A DNA stretch of 64,000 nucleotides, taken from the sequence record NC_054929.1. One strand, written 5' to 3'. Position numbers and translations under genes: made by a program. This stretch comes from Escherichia phage PE37. How positions within the stretch are numbered: the first letter of the stretch is position 1; the number at the start of each line of letters is the position of its first letter. Below, piece after piece: positions 646 through 59,394 of this stretch. The notes under the pieces are model-generated. The model was not told the DNA's origin. It did no database searches and saw only the letters and a program-made list of their open reading frames with translations.

Positions 646-675
646 GTTTACTTTTCCTCTTGACTGTGGTATAAT
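646..675 (+). promoter_or_regulatory. T4-type early promoter (GTTTAC -35, 18 bp spacer, TATAAT -10)
   Basis: gtttacttttcctcttgactgtggtataat upstream of regB RBS GAGGAG. Confidence 0.6.
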
Positions 676-702
676 TTTTCTATCAGTTAAGAGGAGAATA
701 AC

Positions 703-1164
703 ATGACTATCAATACAGAAGTTTTTATCCGTCGAAATAAGCTTCGTCGTCACTTTGAGTCGGAGTTTCGTCAAATTAACAATGAGATTCGTGAGGCATC
801 AAAAGCAGCAGGGGTCTCATCGTTTCATCTAAAATATTCTCAGCATCTTCTTGATCGTGCAATTCAACGGGAGATTGATGAGACATATGTTTTTGAATTA
901 TTCCACAAAATAAAAGACCATGTTTTAGAAGTTAATGAATTCCTGAGTATGCCTCCGCGTCCTGACATTGACGAGGATTTTATTGATGGGGTTGAATATC
1001 GTCCTGGGCGTTTGGAAATTACAGATGGAAATCTTTGGCTTGGATTTACAGTTTGTAAGCCTAATGAGAAGTTCAAAAACCCGTCACTTCAATGCAGGAT
1101 GGCAATTATCAACAGTCGTCGTTTACCAGGAAAGGCTTCTAAAGCAGTAATTAAAACTCAATGA
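703..1164 (+). CDS. regB: RegB site-specific endoribonuclease
   Basis: 153 aa, matches recalled T4 RegB sequence/length; position upstream of tk cluster. Confidence 0.85.
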   Translation: MTINTEVFIRRNKLRRHFESEFRQINNEIREASKAAGVSSFHLKYSQHLLDRAIQREIDETYVFELFHKIKDHVLEVNEFLSMPPRPDIDEDFIDGVEYRPGRLEITDGNLWLGFTVCKPNEKFKNPSLQCRMAIINSRRLPGKASKAVIKTQ

Positions 1165-1717: not shown

Positions 1718-2051
1718 AATTTTGGTTTTATGTATAGGATTAATTTCATTTTCTGCGTTAGCAAATACATCATATACTGAAATTAGAGAGTATGTAAACC
1801 GTACTGCCGCGGATTATTGCGGGAAAAATAAAGCATGCCAAGCTGAATTTGCGCAGAAATTAATATATGCATATAAAGACGGAGAAAGAGATAAATCAAG
1901 CAGATACAAAAATGATACATTGTTAAAACGATATGCTAAAAAGTGGAATACCTTAGAATGTTCAGTTGCGGAGGAGAAAGATAAAGCCGCTTGTCATTCA
2001 ATGGTTGACCGTTTAGTAGATTCTTATAATCGAGGATTGAGTACTAGATGA
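1710..2051 (+). CDS. hypothetical secreted protein (113 aa), Cys-containing
   Basis: Track ORF; signal-peptide-like N-terminus; start overlaps upstream stop. Confidence 0.55.
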   Translation: MTKILVLCIGLISFSALANTSYTEIREYVNRTAADYCGKNKACQAEFAQKLIYAYKDGERDKSSRYKNDTLLKRYAKKWNTLECSVAEEKDKAACHSMVDRLVDSYNRGLSTR

Positions 2052-2527
2052 TTGTAAAATATATCAAGGGCGATATTGTCGCCCTATTTCTTCAAGGTAA
2101 TATTATTGCGCACGGGTGCAATTGTTTTCATACTATGGGTTCAGGTGTAGCGGGTCAATTAGCAAGAGCCTATCCTAAAATTTTAGAAATAGATAAAACC
2201 ACTACTGAGTACGGTTCTCGTGATAAATTAGGCGATATGTCTATTGTTTTTAAACATAATCCTACGGGATTTGGTATATGCTATAACCTGTATACGCAAT
2301 ACGAACCGGGTCCTAATCTTGATTATGGTGCTTTAGTAAACTGCATGATAGAATTAAATCTACAGGCAGAAACCCTTTTGTTTAAACCAGTAATTTACAT
2401 TCCACGCATAGGTTGTGGTATTGCTGGCGGTGATTGGGATAAGGTTTCTAAATTAATCGACATGTTTACTCCTGATATTGATTTAATAGTGGTGGATTAT
2501 GAAAGTACATTACCCGCATCCGTTTGA
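2048..2527 (+). CDS. macro-domain protein (ADP-ribose binding / possible ADP-ribosyl hydrolase)
   Basis: Macro-domain-like Gly-rich motifs (HGCNCFHTMGSGVAGQ; IPRIGCGIAGGDW); 159 aa; ATGA overlap. Confidence 0.6.
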   Translation: MIVKYIKGDIVALFLQGNIIAHGCNCFHTMGSGVAGQLARAYPKILEIDKTTTEYGSRDKLGDMSIVFKHNPTGFGICYNLYTQYEPGPNLDYGALVNCMIELNLQAETLLFKPVIYIPRIGCGIAGGDWDKVSKLIDMFTPDIDLIVVDYESTLPASV

Positions 2528-11985: not shown

Positions 11986-13005
11986 ATGAAAACTCGTTCT
12001 CAAATTGAAGATATGGTTCGTAATGCCAGCTATACTCGTGATGTTATGACATTTTTGTGCCAAAATAATTTAGACCCTGATAAAGTTAATCGTGATATTC
12101 ACTTTAAATATATGAATAGCAGTGAATGGTTACGTCATTTTAGTAAAGCGGGATATATTACACAAATGACTGCTCGTGAGCAGCTCACCGATTTCTGTAA
12201 AACTATTGATTATAAAAATCCTCTATTTGTTCAAGGCGTTGGTCAAAGTAAGGTCGATTTATCATCTGGATTTTTCAATCCAAATCATTATCGTATTGAA
12301 TGGAGATTTATTGCTCTGTTCCGTAGACAATTAAAGCAAATTTTGTCTACTGCTAGTCGATTAAAAGGCTCTGATATTAACTTAAAGAATCTGAAATTTG
12401 ATGGTTATACTCTTCAGATGGAAGTAAGACCGTTAAAAGAAAATAATAGAACTGCACGAATTAGCTTTAAACCTAATACAAAAAATTCTCTTTCAATTTG
12501 TGAATGCCTTAAATCACAGTTGACAGAAGCATTTAAGTATATGGATGTTGTTGCTGCTGTTCAATCTAAGATTTTACCTCGTTTTGAACGATTTAAGTTA
12601 GATACAACATCATATGAACTTGATATGATCGTTTCATTTAAATACGATTTTTTGAGAAAGGACGAAGTCCCGCAAGAGAAAAAGCAAGAAGTGCAAGATA
12701 ACTTAAATTTATCTAATTACTCATCAAACGATCCTAAATTTTGGATGTATAGTTCAGGCAATAAAGATGCATGGAAATTCAATAAAGTGAATTTTCTTCC
12801 TATTGAAAATCCGAGTCTTAAACCTGTTGAAAAATGGCACGCGGATGCGATTGGGAAGTCTATCAAGGCAGTAGATGATGAACTCGTTAAAGCAACTAAT
12901 GAAGTGTTAGAAGCTGAAAAGATGCTAGAAAAAGCTCAAGAAAAAGTCAAAAATCTCACGAAGCAACGTTCTAAACTGAACAATGCACTAAATGCACTGA
13001 ACTAG
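11986..13005 (+). CDS. hypothetical protein (339 aa), C-terminal coiled coil
   Basis: Track ORF, AGGAA RBS. Confidence 0.6.
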   Translation: MKTRSQIEDMVRNASYTRDVMTFLCQNNLDPDKVNRDIHFKYMNSSEWLRHFSKAGYITQMTAREQLTDFCKTIDYKNPLFVQGVGQSKVDLSSGFFNPNHYRIEWRFIALFRRQLKQILSTASRLKGSDINLKNLKFDGYTLQMEVRPLKENNRTARISFKPNTKNSLSICECLKSQLTEAFKYMDVVAAVQSKILPRFERFKLDTTSYELDMIVSFKYDFLRKDEVPQEKKQEVQDNLNLSNYSSNDPKFWMYSSGNKDAWKFNKVNFLPIENPSLKPVEKWHADAIGKSIKAVDDELVKATNEVLEAEKMLEKAQEKVKNLTKQRSKLNNALNALN

Positions 13006-13032
13006 TTTACTTTGCCACAAGGATGTGGTATA
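13005..13032 (+). promoter_or_regulatory. T4-type early promoter
   Basis: gtttactttgccacaaggatgtggtataat. Confidence 0.55.
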
Positions 13033-13062
13033 ATGTTCTTACTTTCTACTGAGGAGATTAAT

Positions 13063-14064
13063 ATGACTCGTAACGAATATATCAAATCATTCAATAGCGT
13101 TATTGATGATAAAGCTATACCGATGTTTGGCCAAAATAGCGTTCTTTCTATTATCAATCAATGGCTCAATAGTGTTGATGCAGGTATTGTTTCTTCTGCT
13201 AAATTTATTCATGAAATTCGTAAAATTTCTAGCCGTGTAGATAAAGATAATATCAAGAAAACCTTTAAAGAGTCTCGTCTTCTTTCATATTTGGTTAATC
13301 GGGATATTCTTGGTAATTTTGGGAAAGAAATTAAACGAACCAAAGATGTAGTAGGATATAATTGGTTCGGTGATGTTAATTCTTATCATCTTAATAATAA
13401 AGAAGACCCTGAGAATATTTTTACTCGTCGTTGGATTAGTAATTTCAGACTTTTTAAAGGACAAATTCTAAAATCAGCTTCTAAATTATGTTATGGCGAT
13501 TATCGTCAAATTCATCCTTTGGCTTCTGATATGATTATCGTAAAAGAATATGAGCTTGATGAAAATAAAGTAGCTATTTTTGTGAATTATGGATTTTTTA
13601 CACCAAACGCTAATCAAAAGAATATTAATAAATTTTTCTCAATTGCTAGTGATATAACTCGACAATTAGAGACTGCACTACTTTGTATGGAAACAGTAGA
13701 AAATATTCATACATATCCTTTTAAGAATATATGCGGATGGGAAGGATATAAAATTGTAATTAGTCTTCGTGAAGTGAAATGTGCTTATTCACCTACTGAT
13801 AAAGAAATTTACCAACAAAAATGTGATGAAATTGTGAATACTCCTAAAGAAGAAACTACCCTTGAGGAACTAATGGATAATCTTGATGATTCACCTGAAC
13901 CGGTAGAAATTCGTCCAGAAGTTATTGCATTAGAAAAAGCTTATAAAGAAGTTCTAGAAATTTCTAATAAAGCGCAGAAAGAATATGAGCAGGCTAAAAA
14001 GATTTGGGAAGAATCCGTTAATCGTCTTGATCGTCTTGAACAAGCTTTAAAGTTAATTAAGTAA
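13063..14064 (+). CDS. hypothetical protein (333 aa), C-terminal coiled coil
   Basis: Track ORF trimmed to ATG 13063 with GAGGAG RBS. Confidence 0.6.
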   Translation: MTRNEYIKSFNSVIDDKAIPMFGQNSVLSIINQWLNSVDAGIVSSAKFIHEIRKISSRVDKDNIKKTFKESRLLSYLVNRDILGNFGKEIKRTKDVVGYNWFGDVNSYHLNNKEDPENIFTRRWISNFRLFKGQILKSASKLCYGDYRQIHPLASDMIIVKEYELDENKVAIFVNYGFFTPNANQKNINKFFSIASDITRQLETALLCMETVENIHTYPFKNICGWEGYKIVISLREVKCAYSPTDKEIYQQKCDEIVNTPKEETTLEELMDNLDDSPEPVEIRPEVIALEKAYKEVLEISNKAQKEYEQAKKIWEESVNRLDRLEQALKLIK

Positions 14065-36478: not shown

Positions 36479-37219
36479 ATGATTAGTGACTCTATGACAG
36501 TTGAAGAAATCCGTCTTCATTTGGGGCTTGCATTAAAAGAAAAAGATTTCGTAGTTGATAAAACCGGTGTTAAAACTATTGAAATTATTGGCGCATCATT
36601 TGTAGCAGATGAACCGTTTATTTTTGGCGCTCTTAATGATGAATACATTCAGCGTGAACTTGAATGGTATAAATCTAAGAGCTTGTTTGTTAAAGATATT
36701 CCAGGTGAAACACCAAAGATTTGGCAGCAGGTAGCATCTTCTAAAGGCGAAATTAACTCGAATTATGGTTGGGCTATTTGGTCAGAAGATAACTATGCCC
36801 AGTATGATATGTGTTTAGCTGAACTTGGTCAAAATCCTGATTCTCGACGTGGTATCATGATTTATACTCGTCCATCCATGCAATTTGACTACAATAAAGA
36901 TGGTATGTCAGATTTCATGTGTACGAATACCGTACAATACTTGATTCGTGACAAGAAAATCAATGCGGTTGTTAACATGAGAAGCAATGATTGCTGGGCA
37001 GGCTATCGTAATGATTATGCATGGCAAAAATACGTATTAGATAAATTAGTATCTGATTTGAATGCAGGCGACCCATCGCGGCAATATAAAGCAGGTTCTA
37101 TTATATGGAACGTTGGAAGTCTTCATGTGTACGAAAATCAGTTTTATTTAGTTGACCATTGGTGGAACACTGGTGAAACTCATATTGCTAAAAAGGATTA
37201 TACTGGAAAATGGAAGTAA
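36479..37219 (+). CDS. 42: dCMP hydroxymethylase gp42
   Basis: 246 aa, thymidylate-synthase-like fold; length and position as in T4. Confidence 0.9.
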   Translation: MISDSMTVEEIRLHLGLALKEKDFVVDKTGVKTIEIIGASFVADEPFIFGALNDEYIQRELEWYKSKSLFVKDIPGETPKIWQQVASSKGEINSNYGWAIWSEDNYAQYDMCLAELGQNPDSRRGIMIYTRPSMQFDYNKDGMSDFMCTNTVQYLIRDKKINAVVNMRSNDCWAGYRNDYAWQKYVLDKLVSDLNAGDPSRQYKAGSIIWNVGSLHVYENQFYLVDHWWNTGETHIAKKDYTGKWK

Positions 37220-37851
37220 ATGCGCCACATGTTTATAAGTATAAACATCCTAAAACTAAAAAGTGGTATATAGGAAGTCATGATGGTCACAACCCGAATT
37301 ATGATGGTTCGGGTGTAGTTTGGCAACATGCTAAAAAGAAATATGGAATAAAATCCTTTAATAAAGAAATATTATATGAAGGACCAATGTTTAGACAGGT
37401 TGAAGAAATTATTTTAACTTGTTTAGATGCTGCTAATTGTCCGGATTCATATAATTTAAAGAATGAAGCATGGGGAGGAAGTTTTCCAGGCAAATTAAAT
37501 GGAATGTACGGTAAAAAACTATCTCCAGAAGAAAGATATAAGTGCGGAAATGCCTTTCGTGGAATCAAGCGTCCTGATCATTCTAAAAGAATGAAAGGCG
37601 AAGGTAATCCAATGTATGGTAAAAATGAGCAAGCATATGGAATTATAAATCGAGCAAAGGAAAATTCTGGTAAAACTTATGAAGAAATTTTTGGCGCAGA
37701 AAAAGCTAAAATAATTAAAGAAACGATGTCTAAAAATCGTAAAGGAAAACCTCATAATTTGATAGAAAAAATATGTCCGTATTGCGGACTAAAAGGACGT
37801 GGGCCAAATATGACAAGATACCATTTTGACAAATGTAAGGCACTTAAATGA
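37210..37851 (+). mobile_element. GIY-YIG homing endonuclease gene (Seg-like, free-standing)
   Basis: N-terminal VYKYKHP-x5-WYIGS motif, repeated GxxxS/NPMYGK motifs, C-terminal CPYC-x-CxxC zinc finger; absent at this locus in T4. Confidence 0.7.
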
Positions 37852-38690
37852 TTCAATTCGTAATTCCAAGCTATCAACGCGTAGGGGCAGTTTCTGCCCT
37901 TGATATGTTTCCGACTGATTATGAACCTCATATTGTAGTACGTGAACATGAAGAAAAAGCTTATTATGACGCTTACGGGTCTAGGGCTAAAATTATAACT
38001 ATTCCTGATGATGTTAATGGAATTGCTGGTACTCGTAAAGCAATTACTGATATGTATGCAGGTCAACGAATCTGGATGATTGATGATGATACTACTATTC
38101 GTATGAGTTCAATGCGAAAAAGAGATGATCGTCGTTGTGTGGATAAAGTCAATCAATTGACTCGTGAACAGTTCTATGAATTGATTCAATATGTTGAGGA
38201 TGCCATGGATTGTGGGTATTATCATGGCCATGCTCGTCTACCTATTTTTAAAATTACTTCATCTTGGGGTAATTATCGTGAAAATTCATATGGATTCACG
38301 AATACATGGTATGACCTCGGAAAACTTACGACAGAACAAATTGGGTATGGAAAAATTGATTTGTGCGAAGATATGTATGCATTTCTCAATTTAATTAATC
38401 AAGGTTATCCGCATTTGGCCTTGTTCAAATATCTGGTTGTATCTGGAAAAGCACAAGCTCCTGGCGGGTGCAGTTCAATTCGTAGTAATTCTAAACATAA
38501 TAGAGCGCTTGAACAAATCAATAGAGAATTTCCAGAGCAAGCTCGTTGGAAAACTTCTAATATTGAAAAACGAAAATCGTTGGGTGAAGAAGATGAGCCA
38601 TTAAAGGTTCTTCGTATGTGTGTTTCGCGCAAAGAAAAATCAGAAGCATTTCATAAGTTTAATGCTATTCATCCGATAGCAGTTGATTAA
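37848..38690 (+). CDS. putative DNA glycosyltransferase (GT-A-like, DxD motif) at the beta-gt locus; candidate T2/T6-type beta-alpha-glucosyltransferase
   Basis: 280 aa; IWMIDDDTT DxD motif; occupies position of T4 beta-gt but is unrelated to the 351-aa T4 protein. Confidence 0.5.
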   Translation: MIQFVIPSYQRVGAVSALDMFPTDYEPHIVVREHEEKAYYDAYGSRAKIITIPDDVNGIAGTRKAITDMYAGQRIWMIDDDTTIRMSSMRKRDDRRCVDKVNQLTREQFYELIQYVEDAMDCGYYHGHARLPIFKITSSWGNYRENSYGFTNTWYDLGKLTTEQIGYGKIDLCEDMYAFLNLINQGYPHLALFKYLVVSGKAQAPGGCSSIRSNSKHNRALEQINREFPEQARWKTSNIEKRKSLGEEDEPLKVLRMCVSRKEKSEAFHKFNAIHPIAVD

Positions 38691-46104: not shown

Positions 46105-46623
46105 ATGTCTCACTTTAATGAATGCGCTCATTTGATCGAAGGTGTTGATAAAGCAACTCGTGCATATGCTGAGAATATTATGCGCAATATTGACCCATTG
46201 CAGGTTATGCTTGATATGCAGCGGTCTTTACAGATTCGTTTGGCTAATGATAAACCAGAAACAAATCGTCATCCTGATTCACTTGAAACAGCAGGAGAAG
46301 TTCTTGCTTGGTTGCGAAACCAAGACGATTATATCGCAGATGAAACTCGCGAACTATATACTTCTCTTGGTGGTATGAGTAATGGTGAAAAAGAAGCTTC
46401 TGCTGTATGGAAACCTTGGAAGAAACGTTATTCTGAAATGCAATCCAAGAAAATTCAAGATTTATCTCCCGAAGATCAGCTTGAAATTAAATTTGAACTG
46501 ATTGACCAATTTCACTTTTTCATGAATAAATTTATTGCTCTTGGAATGTCAGCTGAAGAAATATTTAAACTTTATTATCTGAAAAATGCTGAAAATTTCG
46601 CTCGTCAAGACCGAGGTTATTGA
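46105..46623 (+). CDS. 56: dCTP pyrophosphatase gp56
   Basis: 172 aa; matches recalled T4 gp56. Confidence 0.9.
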   Translation: MSHFNECAHLIEGVDKATRAYAENIMRNIDPLQVMLDMQRSLQIRLANDKPETNRHPDSLETAGEVLAWLRNQDDYIADETRELYTSLGGMSNGEKEASAVWKPWKKRYSEMQSKKIQDLSPEDQLEIKFELIDQFHFFMNKFIALGMSAEEIFKLYYLKNAENFARQDRGY

Positions 46624-46665
46624 TGATATAAATATACCTGTAATTAAACAATAAAGGAGTTTATT

Positions 46666-46902
46666 ATGGGTGGTTTCGTTAACATCAAGACCTTTACTCA
46701 TCCAGCGGGTGAAGGCAAAGAAGTTAAAGGTATGGAAGTTTCTGTTCCGTTTGAAATCTATTCTAACGAGCATCGTATTGCAGATTCTCATTATCAAATC
46801 TTTCCGTCAGAAAAAGCAGCTTATTCTGATGTAGTTTCCGATGCAGCAACTTGGAAAACTAAGAATGCTGCAATGTTTACGCCTACAGAAATAGGTGGTT
46901 AA
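46666..46902 (+). CDS. soc: small outer capsid protein Soc
   Basis: 78 aa; central and C-terminal similarity to recalled T4 Soc (HYQxFPSEKAAYS). Confidence 0.8.
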   Translation: MGGFVNIKTFTHPAGEGKEVKGMEVSVPFEIYSNEHRIADSHYQIFPSEKAAYSDVVSDAATWKTKNAAMFTPTEIGG

Positions 46903-48382: not shown

Positions 48383-48845
48383 AGTAGCAAAACATTATTC
48401 AATAGAATTTATGTCTAAAGAAGGTAAATCAGTAAATACACTTGATAAAAATTGCTCATTAATTATTCCTTTAGCAGAAAATCCGGATATTTTAATTAAA
48501 GATATAAAAGAAAGAAAATATCCAGAAAATGTTATTCTAATTATAAAGCATACTGAAGATATTTTGCAGAATACTGATTCACCATTTTCTTCTTCTGAAG
48601 CTTTAACTATTAAAGGCTATAAAAGAGCTCATGAATATAGTCTTTTTGACCTGTTTGAAGATGATAAAGTTAAATTAGCTAGTCAACCTTCTAAAAGTAA
48701 AACATTCATTATTGAAGATATTAAAGATATAAATGCATTTGTTAAGATGGTCTGGGCTCATTTTGATGTTGGACTACGCTGGAGAATGTCCGAAGAAGAA
48801 AGAAAGATTATTGAAGCTAATCGTCAATTTGGTTTTTATCGCTAA
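48375..48845 (+). CDS. hypothetical protein (156 aa)
   Basis: Track ORF. Confidence 0.55.
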
Positions 48846-48853
48846 GAATTAGT

Positions 48854-49036
48854 ATGGATTTATTTGAGATGTTAGAAGATAATCATTCTACGAATATCCA
48901 GAATGATTCTAGTGATTATAAGAAAGAGTACCGTATAGTATTACAGAATTATGGAATTGAAGCCCCAGATGCTCTTCTAGAAGAACTAGCTTCATACCAT
49001 CTTGACCCTCCGCCTTGGGCTCCCTGGGCAAAATAA
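48854..49036 (+). CDS. hypothetical acidic protein (60 aa)
   Basis: Track ORF. Confidence 0.45.
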   Translation: MDLFEMLEDNHSTNIQNDSSDYKKEYRIVLQNYGIEAPDALLEELASYHLDPPPWAPWAK

Positions 49037-49103
49037 TTCAAAAAGTTGTTTACTTTCCTTTCTAACGATGATATGATAGCTTCTGAAGTATACGGAGGCT
49101 ATC

Positions 49104-49727
49104 ATGATTATTAATCCTGCAGATGTTGAACAGTTATCTATAAAAGCTGAAAGCGTTGATTTTCAATATGATATGTATAAAAAGGTCTGTGAAAAATTTA
49201 CTGACTTTGAACAGTCAGTTCTTTGGCAGTGTATGGAAGCCAAAAAGAATGAAGCTCTTCATCGGCAGTTGAATAAAATCATTAAAAAGCATTTAACTAA
49301 ATCGCCTTATCAATTATATCGTGGTATATCAAAATCGACAAAAGAACTTATTAAAGATTTACAAGTTGGAGAAGTGTTTTCAACGAACAGGGTAGATTCA
49401 TTTACTACTAGTTTGCATACAGCGTGTTCTTTTTCTTATGCTGAATATTTCACTGAAACAATACTTCGTTTAAAAACTGATAAAGCTTTTAATTACTCTG
49501 ACCATATCAGCGATATTATACTTTCTTCTCCTAATACTGAGTTTAAGTACACGTATGAAGACACTGATGGATTAGATTCAGAGCGTACTGATAACTTAAT
49601 GATGATTGTACATGAACAAGAATGGATGATTCCAATTGGAAAGTATAGAATAACTTCTATTTCAAAAGAAAAATTACATGATTCATTTGGAACATTTAAA
49701 GTTTATGATATTGAGGTAGTTGAATGA
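49104..49727 (+). CDS. modB: ADP-ribosyltransferase ModB
   Basis: 207 aa, matches recalled T4 ModB; R-S-E-type ART signature (YRGI, STS). Confidence 0.8.
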   Translation: MIINPADVEQLSIKAESVDFQYDMYKKVCEKFTDFEQSVLWQCMEAKKNEALHRQLNKIIKKHLTKSPYQLYRGISKSTKELIKDLQVGEVFSTNRVDSFTTSLHTACSFSYAEYFTETILRLKTDKAFNYSDHISDIILSSPNTEFKYTYEDTDGLDSERTDNLMMIVHEQEWMIPIGKYRITSISKEKLHDSFGTFKVYDIEVVE

Positions 49728-50326
49728 AATACTCAGTAATGCAACTAAAAGATTTTAAAATAAAATCAATGGATGCATCGGTGCGTGCTTCTATTCGTGA
49801 AGAATTACTTTCTGAAGGGTTTAATTTATCTGAAATTGAACTTTTAATTCATTGTATTACTAATAAGCCAGATGACCATACTTGGTTAAATGAAATAATC
49901 AAATCTCGTTTGGTTCCAAACGATAAACCTCTTTGGAGAGGTGTTCCAGTCGAGACTAAGCAGGTGTTAAATCAAGGAATTGATATTATTACATTTGATA
50001 AAGTCGTATCAGCTTCATATGATAAAAATATAGCTCTACATTTTGCTTCCGGTTTAGAGTATAACACGCAAGTTATTTTTGAATTCAAAGCTCCTATGGT
50101 ATTCAATTTTCAGGAGTATGCTATAAAAGCTCTACGCTGTAAAGAATACAATCCAAACTTTAAGTTTCCGGATAGCCATCGTTATCGTAATATGGAATTA
50201 GTTTCAGATGAACAAGAAGTAATGATACCAGCTGGAAGTGTATTTAGAATTGCAGATAGATATGAGTACAAAAAGTATTCAACATACACTATCTATACTC
50301 TTGATTTTGAAGGATTTAATCTATAA
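49724..50326 (+). CDS. modA: ADP-ribosyltransferase ModA
   Basis: 200 aa, paralog of ModB, ATGA overlap; position as in T4. Confidence 0.75.
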   Translation: MKYSVMQLKDFKIKSMDASVRASIREELLSEGFNLSEIELLIHCITNKPDDHTWLNEIIKSRLVPNDKPLWRGVPVETKQVLNQGIDIITFDKVVSASYDKNIALHFASGLEYNTQVIFEFKAPMVFNFQEYAIKALRCKEYNPNFKFPDSHRYRNMELVSDEQEVMIPAGSVFRIADRYEYKKYSTYTIYTLDFEGFNL

Positions 50327-50380
50327 TGGAAGGACTTAGATTCATTATACCATGAAATTTTTGAAGCATTTTTCATAAAA

Positions 50381-50412
50381 TTGTTTACAAGCCAAGGTAA
50401 AAATGTTATAGT
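50381..50412 (+). promoter_or_regulatory. T4-type early promoter
   Basis: gtttacaagccaaggtaaaaatgttatagt. Confidence 0.5.
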
Positions 50413-50447
50413 ATAGTAGTCAATCGTCCGTAAGATGTGAGAAAAAT

Positions 50448-51203
50448 ATGAAACTGCATAATATGTCTAATAATCAAATTCGTAAAATTAAACGTCGTTT
50501 AGAGCACACTCAGGCATCTGCAAAAAGGCGTTCTAAAGATTTTAACTTAGACTTCAATTACATTAAGAATATTTTAGATCAAAAAGTTTGTGCTTACTCG
50601 GGAGAACCTTTTGATAATCGTATTGAAGGAGAGAAATTATCATTAGAACGTTTTGATAATAACGTTGGATACATTAAAGGGAATGTTATTGCAGTAAAGA
50701 AAAAGTATAATACATTTCGTTCTGATTATACTTTAGAAGAGTTGATTGAAAAACGGGATTTATTTGCTTTGCGAATTGGTCGTTCATCTGCGAAAAAAGT
50801 TCATAAACTAAATTTAGATGAAAAGAAATGGGCTAAAATCAAAAAGACTTATAATCAAATTAAAGCTATACAGAAAAAGCGTGAAAATCGAATTGAACAC
50901 ATTTCTCAGCTTTCTAAATCAAAACAGACCTCTGACATTAAGCTAAGGATTATAGCACTTAAAGCTCGTATTGATGGTTCTCGCATAGCAGAAGGCGCTG
51001 AAGTTGTTAAACTGAACGTTCTTCTTAAAGGCTCGGATTGGAAAACTGTGAAAAAGTTGTCAGAAGCAGAAATGCAATATGATATGTGTGATAAAATTAT
51101 TCAAGGTGTAGAGCGGTATCAAAACTTGTCTTTTATTGATAAACTTAAACTGAAAAGAGGATACCCGCTAAATTGTTCAATTTTTAAACTTATCCGAGGA
51201 TAA
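50448..51203 (+). CDS. srd: hypothetical basic protein (251 aa), possibly Srd
   Basis: Position between modA and dda.1 as T4 srd; identity by synteny only. Confidence 0.4.
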   Translation: MKLHNMSNNQIRKIKRRLEHTQASAKRRSKDFNLDFNYIKNILDQKVCAYSGEPFDNRIEGEKLSLERFDNNVGYIKGNVIAVKKKYNTFRSDYTLEELIEKRDLFALRIGRSSAKKVHKLNLDEKKWAKIKKTYNQIKAIQKKRENRIEHISQLSKSKQTSDIKLRIIALKARIDGSRIAEGAEVVKLNVLLKGSDWKTVKKLSEAEMQYDMCDKIIQGVERYQNLSFIDKLKLKRGYPLNCSIFKLIRG

Positions 51204-57576: not shown

Positions 57577-59394
57577 ATGATTAAGAATGAAATTAAAATT
57601 CTGAGCGATATTGAACATATCAAAAAGCGTAGTGGCATGTATATTGGCTCTTCTGCTAATGAAATGCATGAGCGCTTTCTGTTTGGTAAATGGGAAAGTG
57701 TTCAGTATGTACCTGGTCTTGTTAAGCTCATTGATGAAATTATCGATAACTCAGTCGATGAAGGTATTCGTACTAAGTTTAAATTCGCGAATAAAATTAA
57801 TGTTACCATTAAAAATAATCAGGTAACAGTTGAAGATAACGGTCGTGGTATTCCACAAGCGATGGTTAAAACACCTACCGGTGAAGAAATTCCTGGTCCA
57901 GTTGCTGCTTGGACTATTCCAAAAGCAGGTGGTAACTTTGGTGATGATAAAGAACGTGTCACCGGTGGTATGAATGGTGTTGGTTCTAGTTTAACTAACA
58001 TTTTTTCTGTGATGTTTGTCGGTGAAACTGGCGATGGTCAAAATAATATTGTAGTTCGTTGTTCAAATGGTATGGAAAATAAATCCTGGGAAACTATTCC
58101 TGGAAAATGGAAAGGAACTCGTGTTACTTTCATTCCTGATTTTATGTCATTTGAAACTAATGAGCTGTCTCAGGTTTATCTTGATATTACACTGGATCGT
58201 CTCCAGACACTTGCTGTTGTTTATCCTGATATTCAATTTACCTTTAATGGTAAAAAGGTTCAGGGCAATTTTAAGAAATATGCACGACAGTATGATGAAC
58301 ACGCTATTGTTCAAGAACAAGAAAATTGTTCTATTGCGGTTGGTCGTTCACCGGATGGTTTTCGTCAATTAACTTATGTGAATAACATTCACACTAAGAA
58401 TGGTGGTCATCACATTGATTGTGTTATGGATGATATTTGTGAAGACCTTATTCCACAAATCAAACGTAAATTCAAAATTGATGTAACTAAAGCACGCGTT
58501 AAAGAATGTTTGACTATCGTTATGTTTGTTCGTGATATGAAAAACATGCGATTTGATTCTCAAACTAAAGAGCGTTTGACTTCTCCATTTGGCGAAATTC
58601 GTAGTCATATTCAGCTTGATGCTAAAAAGATTTCACGCGCTATTCTAAATAATGAAGCAATTTTAATGCCGATTATTGAAGCTGCGTTGGCTCGTAAATT
58701 GGCGGCAGAAAAAGCAGCAGAAACTAAAGCAGCTAAAAAGGCTTCTAAAGCTAAGGTTCATAAACATATCAAAGCGAATCTCTGTGGTAAAGATGCTGAC
58801 ACTACTCTTTTCTTGACTGAGGGTGATTCTGCTATCGGATATCTTATTGATGTTCGTGATAAAGAACTTCATGGTGGTTATCCATTGCGTGGTAAAGTTC
58901 TCAACAGTTGGGGTATGTCATATGCTGATATGCTTAAAAACAAAGAACTATTTGATATTTGCGCAATCACTGGATTAGTTCTTGGTGAAAAAGCTGAAAA
59001 CTTGAATTATCATAATATTGCTATTATGACCGATGCTGACCATGATGGTTTAGGAAGCATTTATCCTTCTCTGCTCGGATTTTTTAGTAATTGGCCAGAA
59101 TTGTTTGAGCAAGGACGAATTCGCTTTGTCAAAACTCCTGTAATCATCGCTCAGGTCGGTAAAAAACAAGAATGGTTTTATACAGTCGCTGAATATGAGA
59201 GTGCTAAAGATGCTCTACCTAAACATAGCATCCGTTATATTAAAGGACTTGGCTCTTTGGAAAAATCTGAATATCGTGAGATGATTCAAAATCCAGTATA
59301 TGATGTTGTTAAACTTCCTGAGAACTGGAAAGAGCTTTTTGAAATGCTCATGGGAGATAATGCTGACCTTCGTAAAGAATGGATGAGCCAGTAG
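57577..59394 (+). CDS. 39: DNA topoisomerase II large subunit gp39, fused form (ATPase + gene-60-equivalent C-terminus)
   Basis: 605 aa single ORF with GHKL ATPase motifs; T4 has split 39/60, T2/T6 have a fused gene. Confidence 0.9.
   Translation: MIKNEIKILSDIEHIKKRSGMYIGSSANEMHERFLFGKWESVQYVPGLVKLIDEIIDNSVDEGIRTKFKFANKINVTIKNNQVTVEDNGRGIPQAMVKTPTGEEIPGPVAAWTIPKAGGNFGDDKERVTGGMNGVGSSLTNIFSVMFVGETGDGQNNIVVRCSNGMENKSWETIPGKWKGTRVTFIPDFMSFETNELSQVYLDITLDRLQTLAVVYPDIQFTFNGKKVQGNFKKYARQYDEHAIVQEQENCSIAVGRSPDGFRQLTYVNNIHTKNGGHHIDCVMDDICEDLIPQIKRKFKIDVTKARVKECLTIVMFVRDMKNMRFDSQTKERLTSPFGEIRSHIQLDAKKISRAILNNEAILMPIIEAALARKLAAEKAAETKAAKKASKAKVHKHIKANLCGKDADTTLFLTEGDSAIGYLIDVRDKELHGGYPLRGKVLNSWGMSYADMLKNKELFDICAITGLVLGEKAENLNYHNIAIMTDADHDGLGSIYPSLLGFFSNWPELFEQGRIRFVKTPVIIAQVGKKQEWFYTVAEYESAKDALPKHSIRYIKGLGSLEKSEYREMIQNPVYDVVKLPENWKELFEMLMGDNADLRKEWMSQ

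Follow-up and report, generated by a model that had tools for sequence, protein, structure and literature searches.

The modB and modA genes of Escherichia phage PE37: assignment to their T4 counterparts, a covarying leader hairpin, and a probably independent macro-domain gene at the tk.4/adfM position

We analyzed 64,000 nucleotides from Escherichia phage PE37 (NC_054929.1; hereafter the window, numbered from its first nucleotide), with a focus on two adjacent genes at positions 49104-50326 that encode the putative ADP-ribosyltransferases ModB and ModA, and on a macro-domain gene at positions 2048-2527. Judging from their sequences, the two open reading frames (ORFs) are the orthologs of modB and modA of phage T4 in a Tequatrovirus (T4-like) phage. 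The reading as a whole, in which the two genes are these orthologs and form one early unit and in which the macro gene is an independent allele of T4 tk.4 (adfM), has in our assessment a probability of about 0.9. Both Mod proteins would be small early ADP-ribosyltransferases that act on arginines in host proteins and use nicotinamide adenine dinucleotide (NAD) for this modification.

The modB-modA locus and the catalytic residues of its products

The gene modB (49104-49727, plus strand) encodes a protein of 207 amino acids, predicted to be an arginine-specific ADP-ribosyltransferase and RNAylating enzyme, and modA (49724-50326, plus strand) encodes a protein of 200 amino acids, predicted to ADP-ribosylate Arg265 of the RNA polymerase alpha subunit. 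In BLASTP comparisons, 201 of the 207 residues of ModB were identical to T4 ModB (NP_049636; 97%), as were 197 of the 200 residues of ModA to T4 ModA (NP_049635; 99%). Both ORFs were assigned to phrog_832 in PHROGs, “RNA polymerase ADP-ribosylase”, with E-values of 5e-42 for ModB and 2e-33 for ModA. The stop codon of modB and the start codon of modA share the tetranucleotide ATGA at 49724-49727, as read directly from the sequence, and the two proteins are paralogs with 27% identity across 179 residues (E-value 2e-15). The initial annotation, which had described a pair of overlapping paralogs and named them ModB and ModA, was exact in its coordinates, lengths and ATGA overlap when compared with the ORF list and the sequence; its naming was right, given the identity to the T4 proteins and the T4 gene order, and the paralogy was borne out by the alignment.

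T4 ModB has the same length, genomic position, ATGA overlap with modA, promoter and leader sequence as ModB of the window, from which it is separated by six substitutions (L5P, K54R, H55Q, E58K, R170H, K182R). T4 modA likewise occupies the same genomic position, and the two ModA proteins are separated by three substitutions (S53T, A76V, C185Y), none of them at the listed functional residues. The gene order mrh-srh-modA.4-modA.3-modA.2-modB-modA-srd-dda.1 is that of T4, with the window in reversed orientation relative to the T4 reference NC_000866, where the mod genes are located on the minus strand. The neighbors srh, modA.4, modA.3 and modA.2 on the upstream side, and srd and dda.1 on the downstream side, showed 91-99% protein identity to T4. 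The immediate upstream neighbor is the modA.2 homolog (48854-49036, plus strand; 98% identity to T4 ModA.2; phrog_1647), and downstream, as in T4, lies srd, a homolog of the anti-sigma factor gene (50448-51203, plus strand; 99% identity to T4 Srd; phrog_1400, 1.9e-108). A megablast search with 48800-50600 recovered 519 phage records with at least 90% nucleotide identity, in which the genes are annotated as modB and modA; nearly all of them come from Tequatrovirus-type phages that infect Escherichia, Shigella or Yersinia. A ModB protein 100% identical to that of the window can already be found in the public record of Escherichia phage ECP52 (ON782582).

The activities of the T4 proteins are well documented. 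ModA ADP-ribosylates Arg265 in both of the RNA polymerase's alpha subunits and has a strong toxic effect on E. coli (PMC2988021). The targets of ModB include S1, EF-Tu and trigger factor (PMC3014915), and ModB can further link NAD-capped RNAs to arginine residues in S1 and L2, a reaction termed RNAylation (PMC10468400). The R73A substitution abolishes the activity of ModB, and a T4 mutant with R73A,G74A in ModB has a smaller burst and delayed lysis; the marks are arginine N-glycosides, which are removed by ARH1, but not by ARH3 (PMC10468400).

An alignment of 44 diverse Mod family members, with a mean column identity of 26%, contained only five invariant columns, R73, G74, S99, E171 and E173 in ModB numbering, which correspond to R72, G73, S96, E163 and E165 in ModA. 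In the window, ModB contains R73, S99-F-T101 and E171-Q-E173, and ModA contains R72, S96, S109, F127, F129 and E163-Q-E165. Together, R73, S99, E171 and E173 make up the R-S-ExE signature by which cholera-toxin-like ADP-ribosyltransferases are recognized. An alignment with T4 ModA and ModB for the catalytic R-S-E residues, which had been proposed along with the initial annotation, thus found all of them in both proteins.

Searches of the PDB with the ModB and ModA sequences gave no match, and thus no solved structure of a Mod protein; the fold was therefore compared by means of a predicted model. The AlphaFold (AF2) model of ModB from the window has a mean predicted local distance difference test score (pLDDT) of 93.1 and a predicted template modeling score (pTM) of 0.88. 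In this model, R73 is on the strand 71-74, S99 is on the strand 98-101, which is followed by the helix 104-114, and E171 and E173 are located where the strand 173-176 starts. The best 50 matches to the model in a Foldseek search of the PDB were all R-S-E ADP-ribosyltransferases, among them Certhrax, Plx2A, iota Ia, C3, Vis, VIP2, Tre1, CDTa, ExoS and HopU1, with E-values of about 1e-5 and template modeling (TM) scores of about 0.4-0.57. Toxins of the C3, iota, VIP2 and Certhrax types have the fold and the layout of R, S-x-S/T and ExE in common with the Mod proteins, but only 9-17% sequence identity to them, and the Mod proteins differ from these toxins by an N-terminal four-helix segment of their own.

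The family appears from the sequence searches to be small and mostly restricted to phages. When 1.84 billion cluster representatives were searched exhaustively with a profile, only 116 Mod relatives were identified at an E-value of 1e-3 or lower; this search was used in place of a word-indexed homolog search, which had given 10 relatives of ModB. A search for related loci with an alignment of 11 sequences yielded 16 loci in three or four genera. The arrangement of the mod genes differs among the phages. In Tequatrovirus, modB and modA overlap, while in RB69 and in Dhakavirus both genes are present but separated, with modA preceded by an early promoter of its own. The Klebsiella phage phi1_146055 contains a single Mod family gene (L006:1150-2012) directly followed by a homolog of dmd, an antitoxin-like gene; a possible toxin-antitoxin-like pairing of Mod and Dmd has been suggested by Iyer et al. 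(PMC9503650).

Since Salmonella phage S16 and two Klebsiella phages have one mod gene each, and since only a remnant of 45 codons is found at the modB position in phiC120, one of the tandem paralogs in the window could be imagined to be an inactive relic, that is, a pseudoenzyme. This is extremely improbable. Both ORFs are full length, they are 97-99% identical to biochemically active T4 proteins, and every invariant catalytic residue has been retained, with the six substitutions in ModB and the three in ModA relative to T4 missing all of these residues. Based on the alignment and the structural model, both enzymes look intact.

The macro-domain gene at the tk.4 position

The macro-domain gene (2048-2527, plus strand) encodes a protein of 159 amino acids that matched the Pfam Macro domain (PF01661) with 33.1 bits, as compared to a gathering cut-off of 22. 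It is located outside the mod operon, between vs and tk.3 in the vs/tk transcription unit, which is the place of tk.4 in T4. The protein is a divergent allele, with 58% identity to T4 Tk.4 (E-value 1e-70), while the genes on either side show higher identity to their T4 counterparts (vs, 96.5%; tk.3, 91%). The same allele was found in other Tequatrovirus genomes (teqdroes, FL33 and PEC04).

In a recent preprint, tk.4 was the single significant T4 gene needed on hosts that express DarTG2, a defense system that ADP-ribosylates DNA thymidines; a clean knockout of tk.4 sensitized T4 to DarTG2, and the gene was renamed adfM (bioRxiv 10.1101/2025.11.20.689424, 2025 preprint). The macro protein of the window shares with T4 Tk.4 (AdfM) the locus between vs and tk.3, the size and a macro fold of the TARG1/DarG class, as well as the family-invariant residues H22, G23, N25, C26, D49, N80, Y82, T83, Q84, G122, G124 and W130. 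By analogy with T4, it is most likely an independent gene, allelic to tk.4/adfM, that acts in counter-defense against DNA ADP-ribosylation of the DarT type.

The closest relatives by sequence were BT1257, Poa1p (1.5e-9) and SCO6735, followed by weaker matches to DarG from M. tuberculosis (5m3i, 4.8e-5) and TARG1 (0.01). The AF2 model of the macro protein has a pLDDT of 93.8, and its best PDB folds were TARG1, BT1257, Poa1p and DarG, with TM scores of about 0.7-0.8. DarG and TARG1 are the closest solved folds (TM scores of 0.73-0.83), with weak sequence matches. Both of these enzymes have a catalytic lysine in a “TK” motif, K80 in DarG and K84 in TARG1 (PMC8120803), at the place of which an N-x-Y-T-Q motif is invariant in the macro family, with Q84 at the end of the strand 74-84 of the model. 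We infer the correspondence of TARG1 K84 to Q84 from the motif, the spacing and the strand ends in the model, with which a three-sequence MAFFT alignment that set K84 of TARG1 opposite K69 of the macro protein is inconsistent. Furthermore, D125 of TARG1 aligns with Ala126 of the macro protein, which has G-x-G-I-A-G-G (residues 122-128) where TARG1 has the catalytic aspartate. The DarG equivalog NF048014 (NCBIfam) scored only 27.8 bits, as compared to a cut-off of 250, with 159 amino acids against a profile of 338 positions, and the macro protein is without the DarT-binding C-terminal domain of DarG. Because of the TQ motif, the replacement of D125 by Ala126 and the sub-threshold DarG score, we classified the protein as a homolog of the AdfM type rather than as a DarG.

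Some of the same features could suggest that the protein is a housekeeping metabolite enzyme, an ADP-ribose-1''-phosphate phosphatase or an O-acetyl-ADP-ribose deacetylase like yeast Poa1p, rather than a DNA de-ADP-ribosylase. The label in GenBank and PHROGs is “phosphatase” (A1pp motif), the Poa1p structures are matched at E-values down to 1.5e-9 and have the HxCNC motif in common with it, and Poa1p and BT1257 rank level with DarG in the fold search; the catalytic lysine of DarG and TARG1 is missing from the family, and the DarG equivalog score is far below its cut-off. We consider this rather unlikely, since the loss of fitness of T4 without tk.4 was specific to DarTG2 hosts, as the clean knockout confirms, and since the replacement of the allele in an otherwise conserved neighborhood fits arms-race evolution.

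That replacement extends beyond the macro gene. In the segment 2048-3266, from tk.4 to tk.1, the alleles differ from those of T4 in a conserved neighborhood: tk.2 is 54% identical to T4, and there is no match to tk.1, at the place of which other small ORFs were found (phrog_2306, phrog_3452). Identity to T4 is 91-100% for the flanking genes vs.1, vs, tk.3 and tk. Such a replacement fits diversifying selection on an anti-defense locus.

The initial annotation had also proposed that the macro gene, together with ModB and ModA, provides the phage with both writers and a possible eraser or reader of ADP-ribosylation. The first part of this proposal stands, inasmuch as the phage contains a real ORF with a Pfam Macro match in the same genome as the two mod genes, and macrodomains generally bind ADP-ribose, with many of them hydrolyzing ADP-ribosyl adducts. 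The second part, a self-contained circuit in which the macro protein erases or reads the marks of ModA and ModB, is very unlikely in the light of the distance between the genes, the genetics of tk.4, the chemistry of the linkage and the phyletic spread. The end of the macro gene at 2527 and the start of modB at 49104 are 47 kb apart, in separate transcription units with separate promoters, and the positional ortholog in T4 is the very gene that gave the single significant result with DarTG2 and the sensitized knockout. The arginine N-glycosides made by ModB are removed by ARH1, and hydrolysis of ADP-ribosylated arginine is the chemistry of the DraG/ARH fold, not of a TARG1-like macro protein; macro proteins of the TARG1 and MacroD types cleave ester-linked ADP-ribose, O-acetyl-ADP-ribose and nucleic-acid adducts (PMC8120803).

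The distribution of the two families was judged from the total number of records per family and from the phage groups in which they were found. In tblastn searches, the macro family was recovered from 2776 phage records, including phages of Felixounavirus size, phages of Pseudomonas, Vibrio, Synechococcus and Streptomyces, and Escherichia, Salmonella and Pseudomonas phages of about 86-98 kb. The Mod family, in contrast, was recovered from 1009 records, essentially all T4-like enterobacterial phages, and many of the groups with a macro gene had no Mod match. Moreover, nothing points to co-evolution of the two: a different macro allele (58% identity) has been swapped in, but the identity of ModA and ModB to T4 is still 97-99%. 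For a dedicated pair of an ADP-ribosyltransferase and a hydrolase, such as DraT/DraG, Tre1/Tri1, DarT/DarG or SirTM/MacroD, the two genes should be adjacent or co-transcribed and should co-occur across genomes, and the fold of the hydrolase should suit the linkage made by the writer. The mod and macro genes are neither adjacent nor co-transcribed, their spread differs, and a macro protein of the TARG1 class does not suit an arginine N-glycoside. A link between the macro protein and the Mod enzymes is therefore unsupported, and it is contradicted by the recent genetics and by the linkage chemistry. A role as a pure reader, limited to binding of the marks, is nevertheless conceivable.

Expression of modB-modA and a conserved hairpin in the modB leader

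A consensus scan predicted a promoter of the T4 early type for modB-modA at 49049-49077 on the plus strand (from 49048 if the preceding G is included), with the −35 element TTTACT, a spacer of 17 nucleotides and the TG-extended −10 element TATGAT. The promoter is identical in T4. In nine of ten leaders from six lineages, the sequence GTTTAC was found at −56 to −58 from the AUG, with TTTTAC in the Dhakavirus leader. The scan of the window detected no early-type promoter ahead of modA, and a GAGG sequence is located 7 nucleotides upstream of the modA ATG, which suggests that, in this phage, modB and modA are probably transcribed early as a single bicistronic unit and that their translation is coupled. 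The translation of modA would probably be coupled to that of modB via the ATGA overlap. A second early-type promoter, for srd, was predicted by the scan at 50384-50412 on the plus strand (TTTACA, 17 nucleotides, TATAGT), and it delimits the mod operon on the downstream side. In the srd leader, the motif CGTCCGTAAGA(T/C), at about 50427-50438 in the window, is conserved about 15-25 nucleotides upstream of the srd start codon. The CGTCCGTAAGA(T/C) motif has been kept in Tequatro-, Mosig-, Dhaka- and VR5-like phages (including L003, L005 and L016-L024), while the remaining leader is variable.

The leader of modB can be folded into an RNA hairpin (49067-49112, plus strand), in which the 5' arm (49067-49085) contains the −10 hexamer, and the 3' arm contains the modB Shine-Dalgarno (SD) sequence GGAGG (49094-49098) and the AUG (49104). 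The hairpin has a minimum free energy of −22.3 kcal/mol with a z-score of −2.84, is identical in T4, and makes the modB leader the most stable of those that follow the 19 early-type promoters of the window. In all other lineages that we examined, the mod gene that comes first is preceded by the same layout, made up of different sequences. This holds for RB69 and phiC120 (both Mosigvirus), for S16 (Gelderlandvirus) and IME341 (Dhakavirus), for VR5-like contigs and for two lineages of Klebsiella phages, so that seven lineages are represented, including that of the window. The equivalents are located at L003:818-864, L004:1404-1452, L005:501-545, L006:1111-1152, L007:1063-1110 and L016:768-811. 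The energies range from −15 to −25 kcal/mol across the seven lineages, with z-scores from −2.75 to −4.46 in the lineages other than that of the window. No such structure was found ahead of the second mod gene or in the srd leaders (z-score 0.41 for srd in the window).

We also assessed whether the pairing is conserved as such. When the leaders are lined up at the AUG, two to four types of base pair are found at each position of the 3' arm, including compensatory changes of both bases. In an alignment of 14 sequences, paired bases accounted for 89.5% of the cells, as compared to 39-48% if the partner was slid, four of 11 pairs had double changes, and the covariation score was 0.413, as compared to 0.293±0.033 in shuffled alignments, none of 500 of which scored as high; these numbers are flattered, since the structure model itself was used in fitting the alignment. 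An intrinsic terminator was rejected as an explanation for the hairpin because it is not followed by a U-tract in most lineages, and a DNA palindrome is less likely because the mRNA strand has G-U at several of the paired positions.

As placed from the −10 hexamer at 49072-49077, the predicted transcription start is near 49084, in the last bases of the 5' arm. Since the −10 region is paired with the modB ribosome-binding site, upstream read-through transcripts (mrh/modA.2) would keep the hairpin closed to ribosomes, and only transcripts begun at the proximal early promoter, which would have an open ribosome-binding site, would be translated. We tentatively propose, at slightly less than even odds, that the hairpin is a conserved translational gate that confines the toxic ModB, and also ModA via the ATGA coupling, to transcripts from the proximal promoter. 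Hairpins that sequester the ribosome-binding site are known from four T4 genes, e, soc, 49 and I-TevI, which were the only ones listed in a review from 2010, with modB absent (PMC3014915). In these genes, the SD sequence and the AUG are in a helix of which the 5' arm is located upstream of the proximal start, as may also hold for modB. However, they have a late promoter in the proximal position, and it is early translation that their structure prevents, whereas the proximal promoter of modB is early.

Weaker pairings between a −10 element and an SD/AUG region were observed at two other early-type promoters in the window. At 13005-13074 (plus strand), 12 nucleotides are paired with −11.4 kcal/mol before an ORF of 333 amino acids that starts at 13063, and at 646-714 (plus strand), 10 nucleotides are paired with −8.3 kcal/mol before an ORF of 153 amino acids that starts at 703, at the position of T4 regB. 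The covariance model weakly matched both sites, and the hairpin device may thus have been reused.

Strength of the assignments and their implications

Several points weigh against the overall interpretation given at the outset. ModA and ModB had no match in the local Pfam-A and NCBIfam libraries. Since a precomputed PF26816 label exists for the Mod family in a protein database, and since both proteins matched PHROGs, we attribute this result to the coverage of the libraries. The substitution R170H in ModB directly precedes E171-Q-E173, in a column that is variable across the family. The macro protein is only 58% identical to the T4 Tk.4 protein that has been tested genetically, and the glutamine that its family appears to have at the place of the catalytic lysine of TARG1 and DarG leaves the mechanism and the exact substrate unproven. 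For the modB leader, the site at which transcription starts and the influence of the hairpin on translation are both predictions.

A further point in the same direction is that the serine of the “R-S-E” motif is ambiguous, with S109 and S96/S99 as the candidates. In a review table, the serine of the ModA motif is given as S109, in the residue list R72, S109, F127, F129 and E165 (PMC8120803). However, S109 of ModA, which corresponds to S111 of ModB, is not invariant in the family and is located within a helix of the ModB model, whereas S99 of ModB and S96 of ModA are family-invariant and located at the canonical strand end. The invariance and the topology of the model point to ModB S99 and ModA S96, rather than S109, as the motif serine. 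Both candidate serines are present in the proteins of the window, and the conclusion that the enzymes are intact is unchanged. The codons are 49398-49400 for S99 and 49434-49436 for S111 in modB, and 50009-50011 for S96 and 50048-50050 for S109 in modA.

The window differs from T4 in several other segments. At 37210-38690, the beta-glucosyltransferase gene and segA of T4 have been replaced by a seg-like GIY-YIG homing endonuclease gene (phrog_314) and a gene for a beta-glucosyl-HMC-alpha-glucosyltransferase (HMC, hydroxymethylcytosine; phrog_842, 6e-89), a content that corresponds to DNA glucosylation of the T2/T6 type. As compared to T4, the window is without the I-TevII intron in nrdD, mobC, mobB, segF and the insertion of mobA/60.1 that splits gene 60, with the corresponding sites at about 18311, about 19600, about 24400, 46610-46896 and about 58994-59046; the alignment picks up again at position 2806 of T4, within the annotated translational-bypass region. 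The soc gene is present in a divergent form at 46666-46902.

The modB/modA pair is already known: these are textbook T4 genes that are found in hundreds of sequenced relatives. What needs correction is the annotation of the macro gene, which should be recorded as an allele of tk.4/adfM and not as a partner of ModA and ModB; with the macro protein as an allele of an anti-DarTG2 factor, no phage-internal circuit of writers and eraser should be annotated. If macro proteins of the Tk.4/AdfM type remove the adducts made by DarT2, they do so without the lysine of DarG. The placement of the motif serine at ModB S99 and ModA S96, and the modB leader hairpin that covaries in seven T4-like lineages, may be of interest to specialists. 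The leader hairpin may be the sole item that is new, as a variant of a known regulatory device in T4. If the proposal is true, the modB gate would be the early-gene counterpart of the structures at e, soc, 49 and I-TevI in T4, and it could explain how the toxic Mod enzymes are restricted to a short early window of infection.

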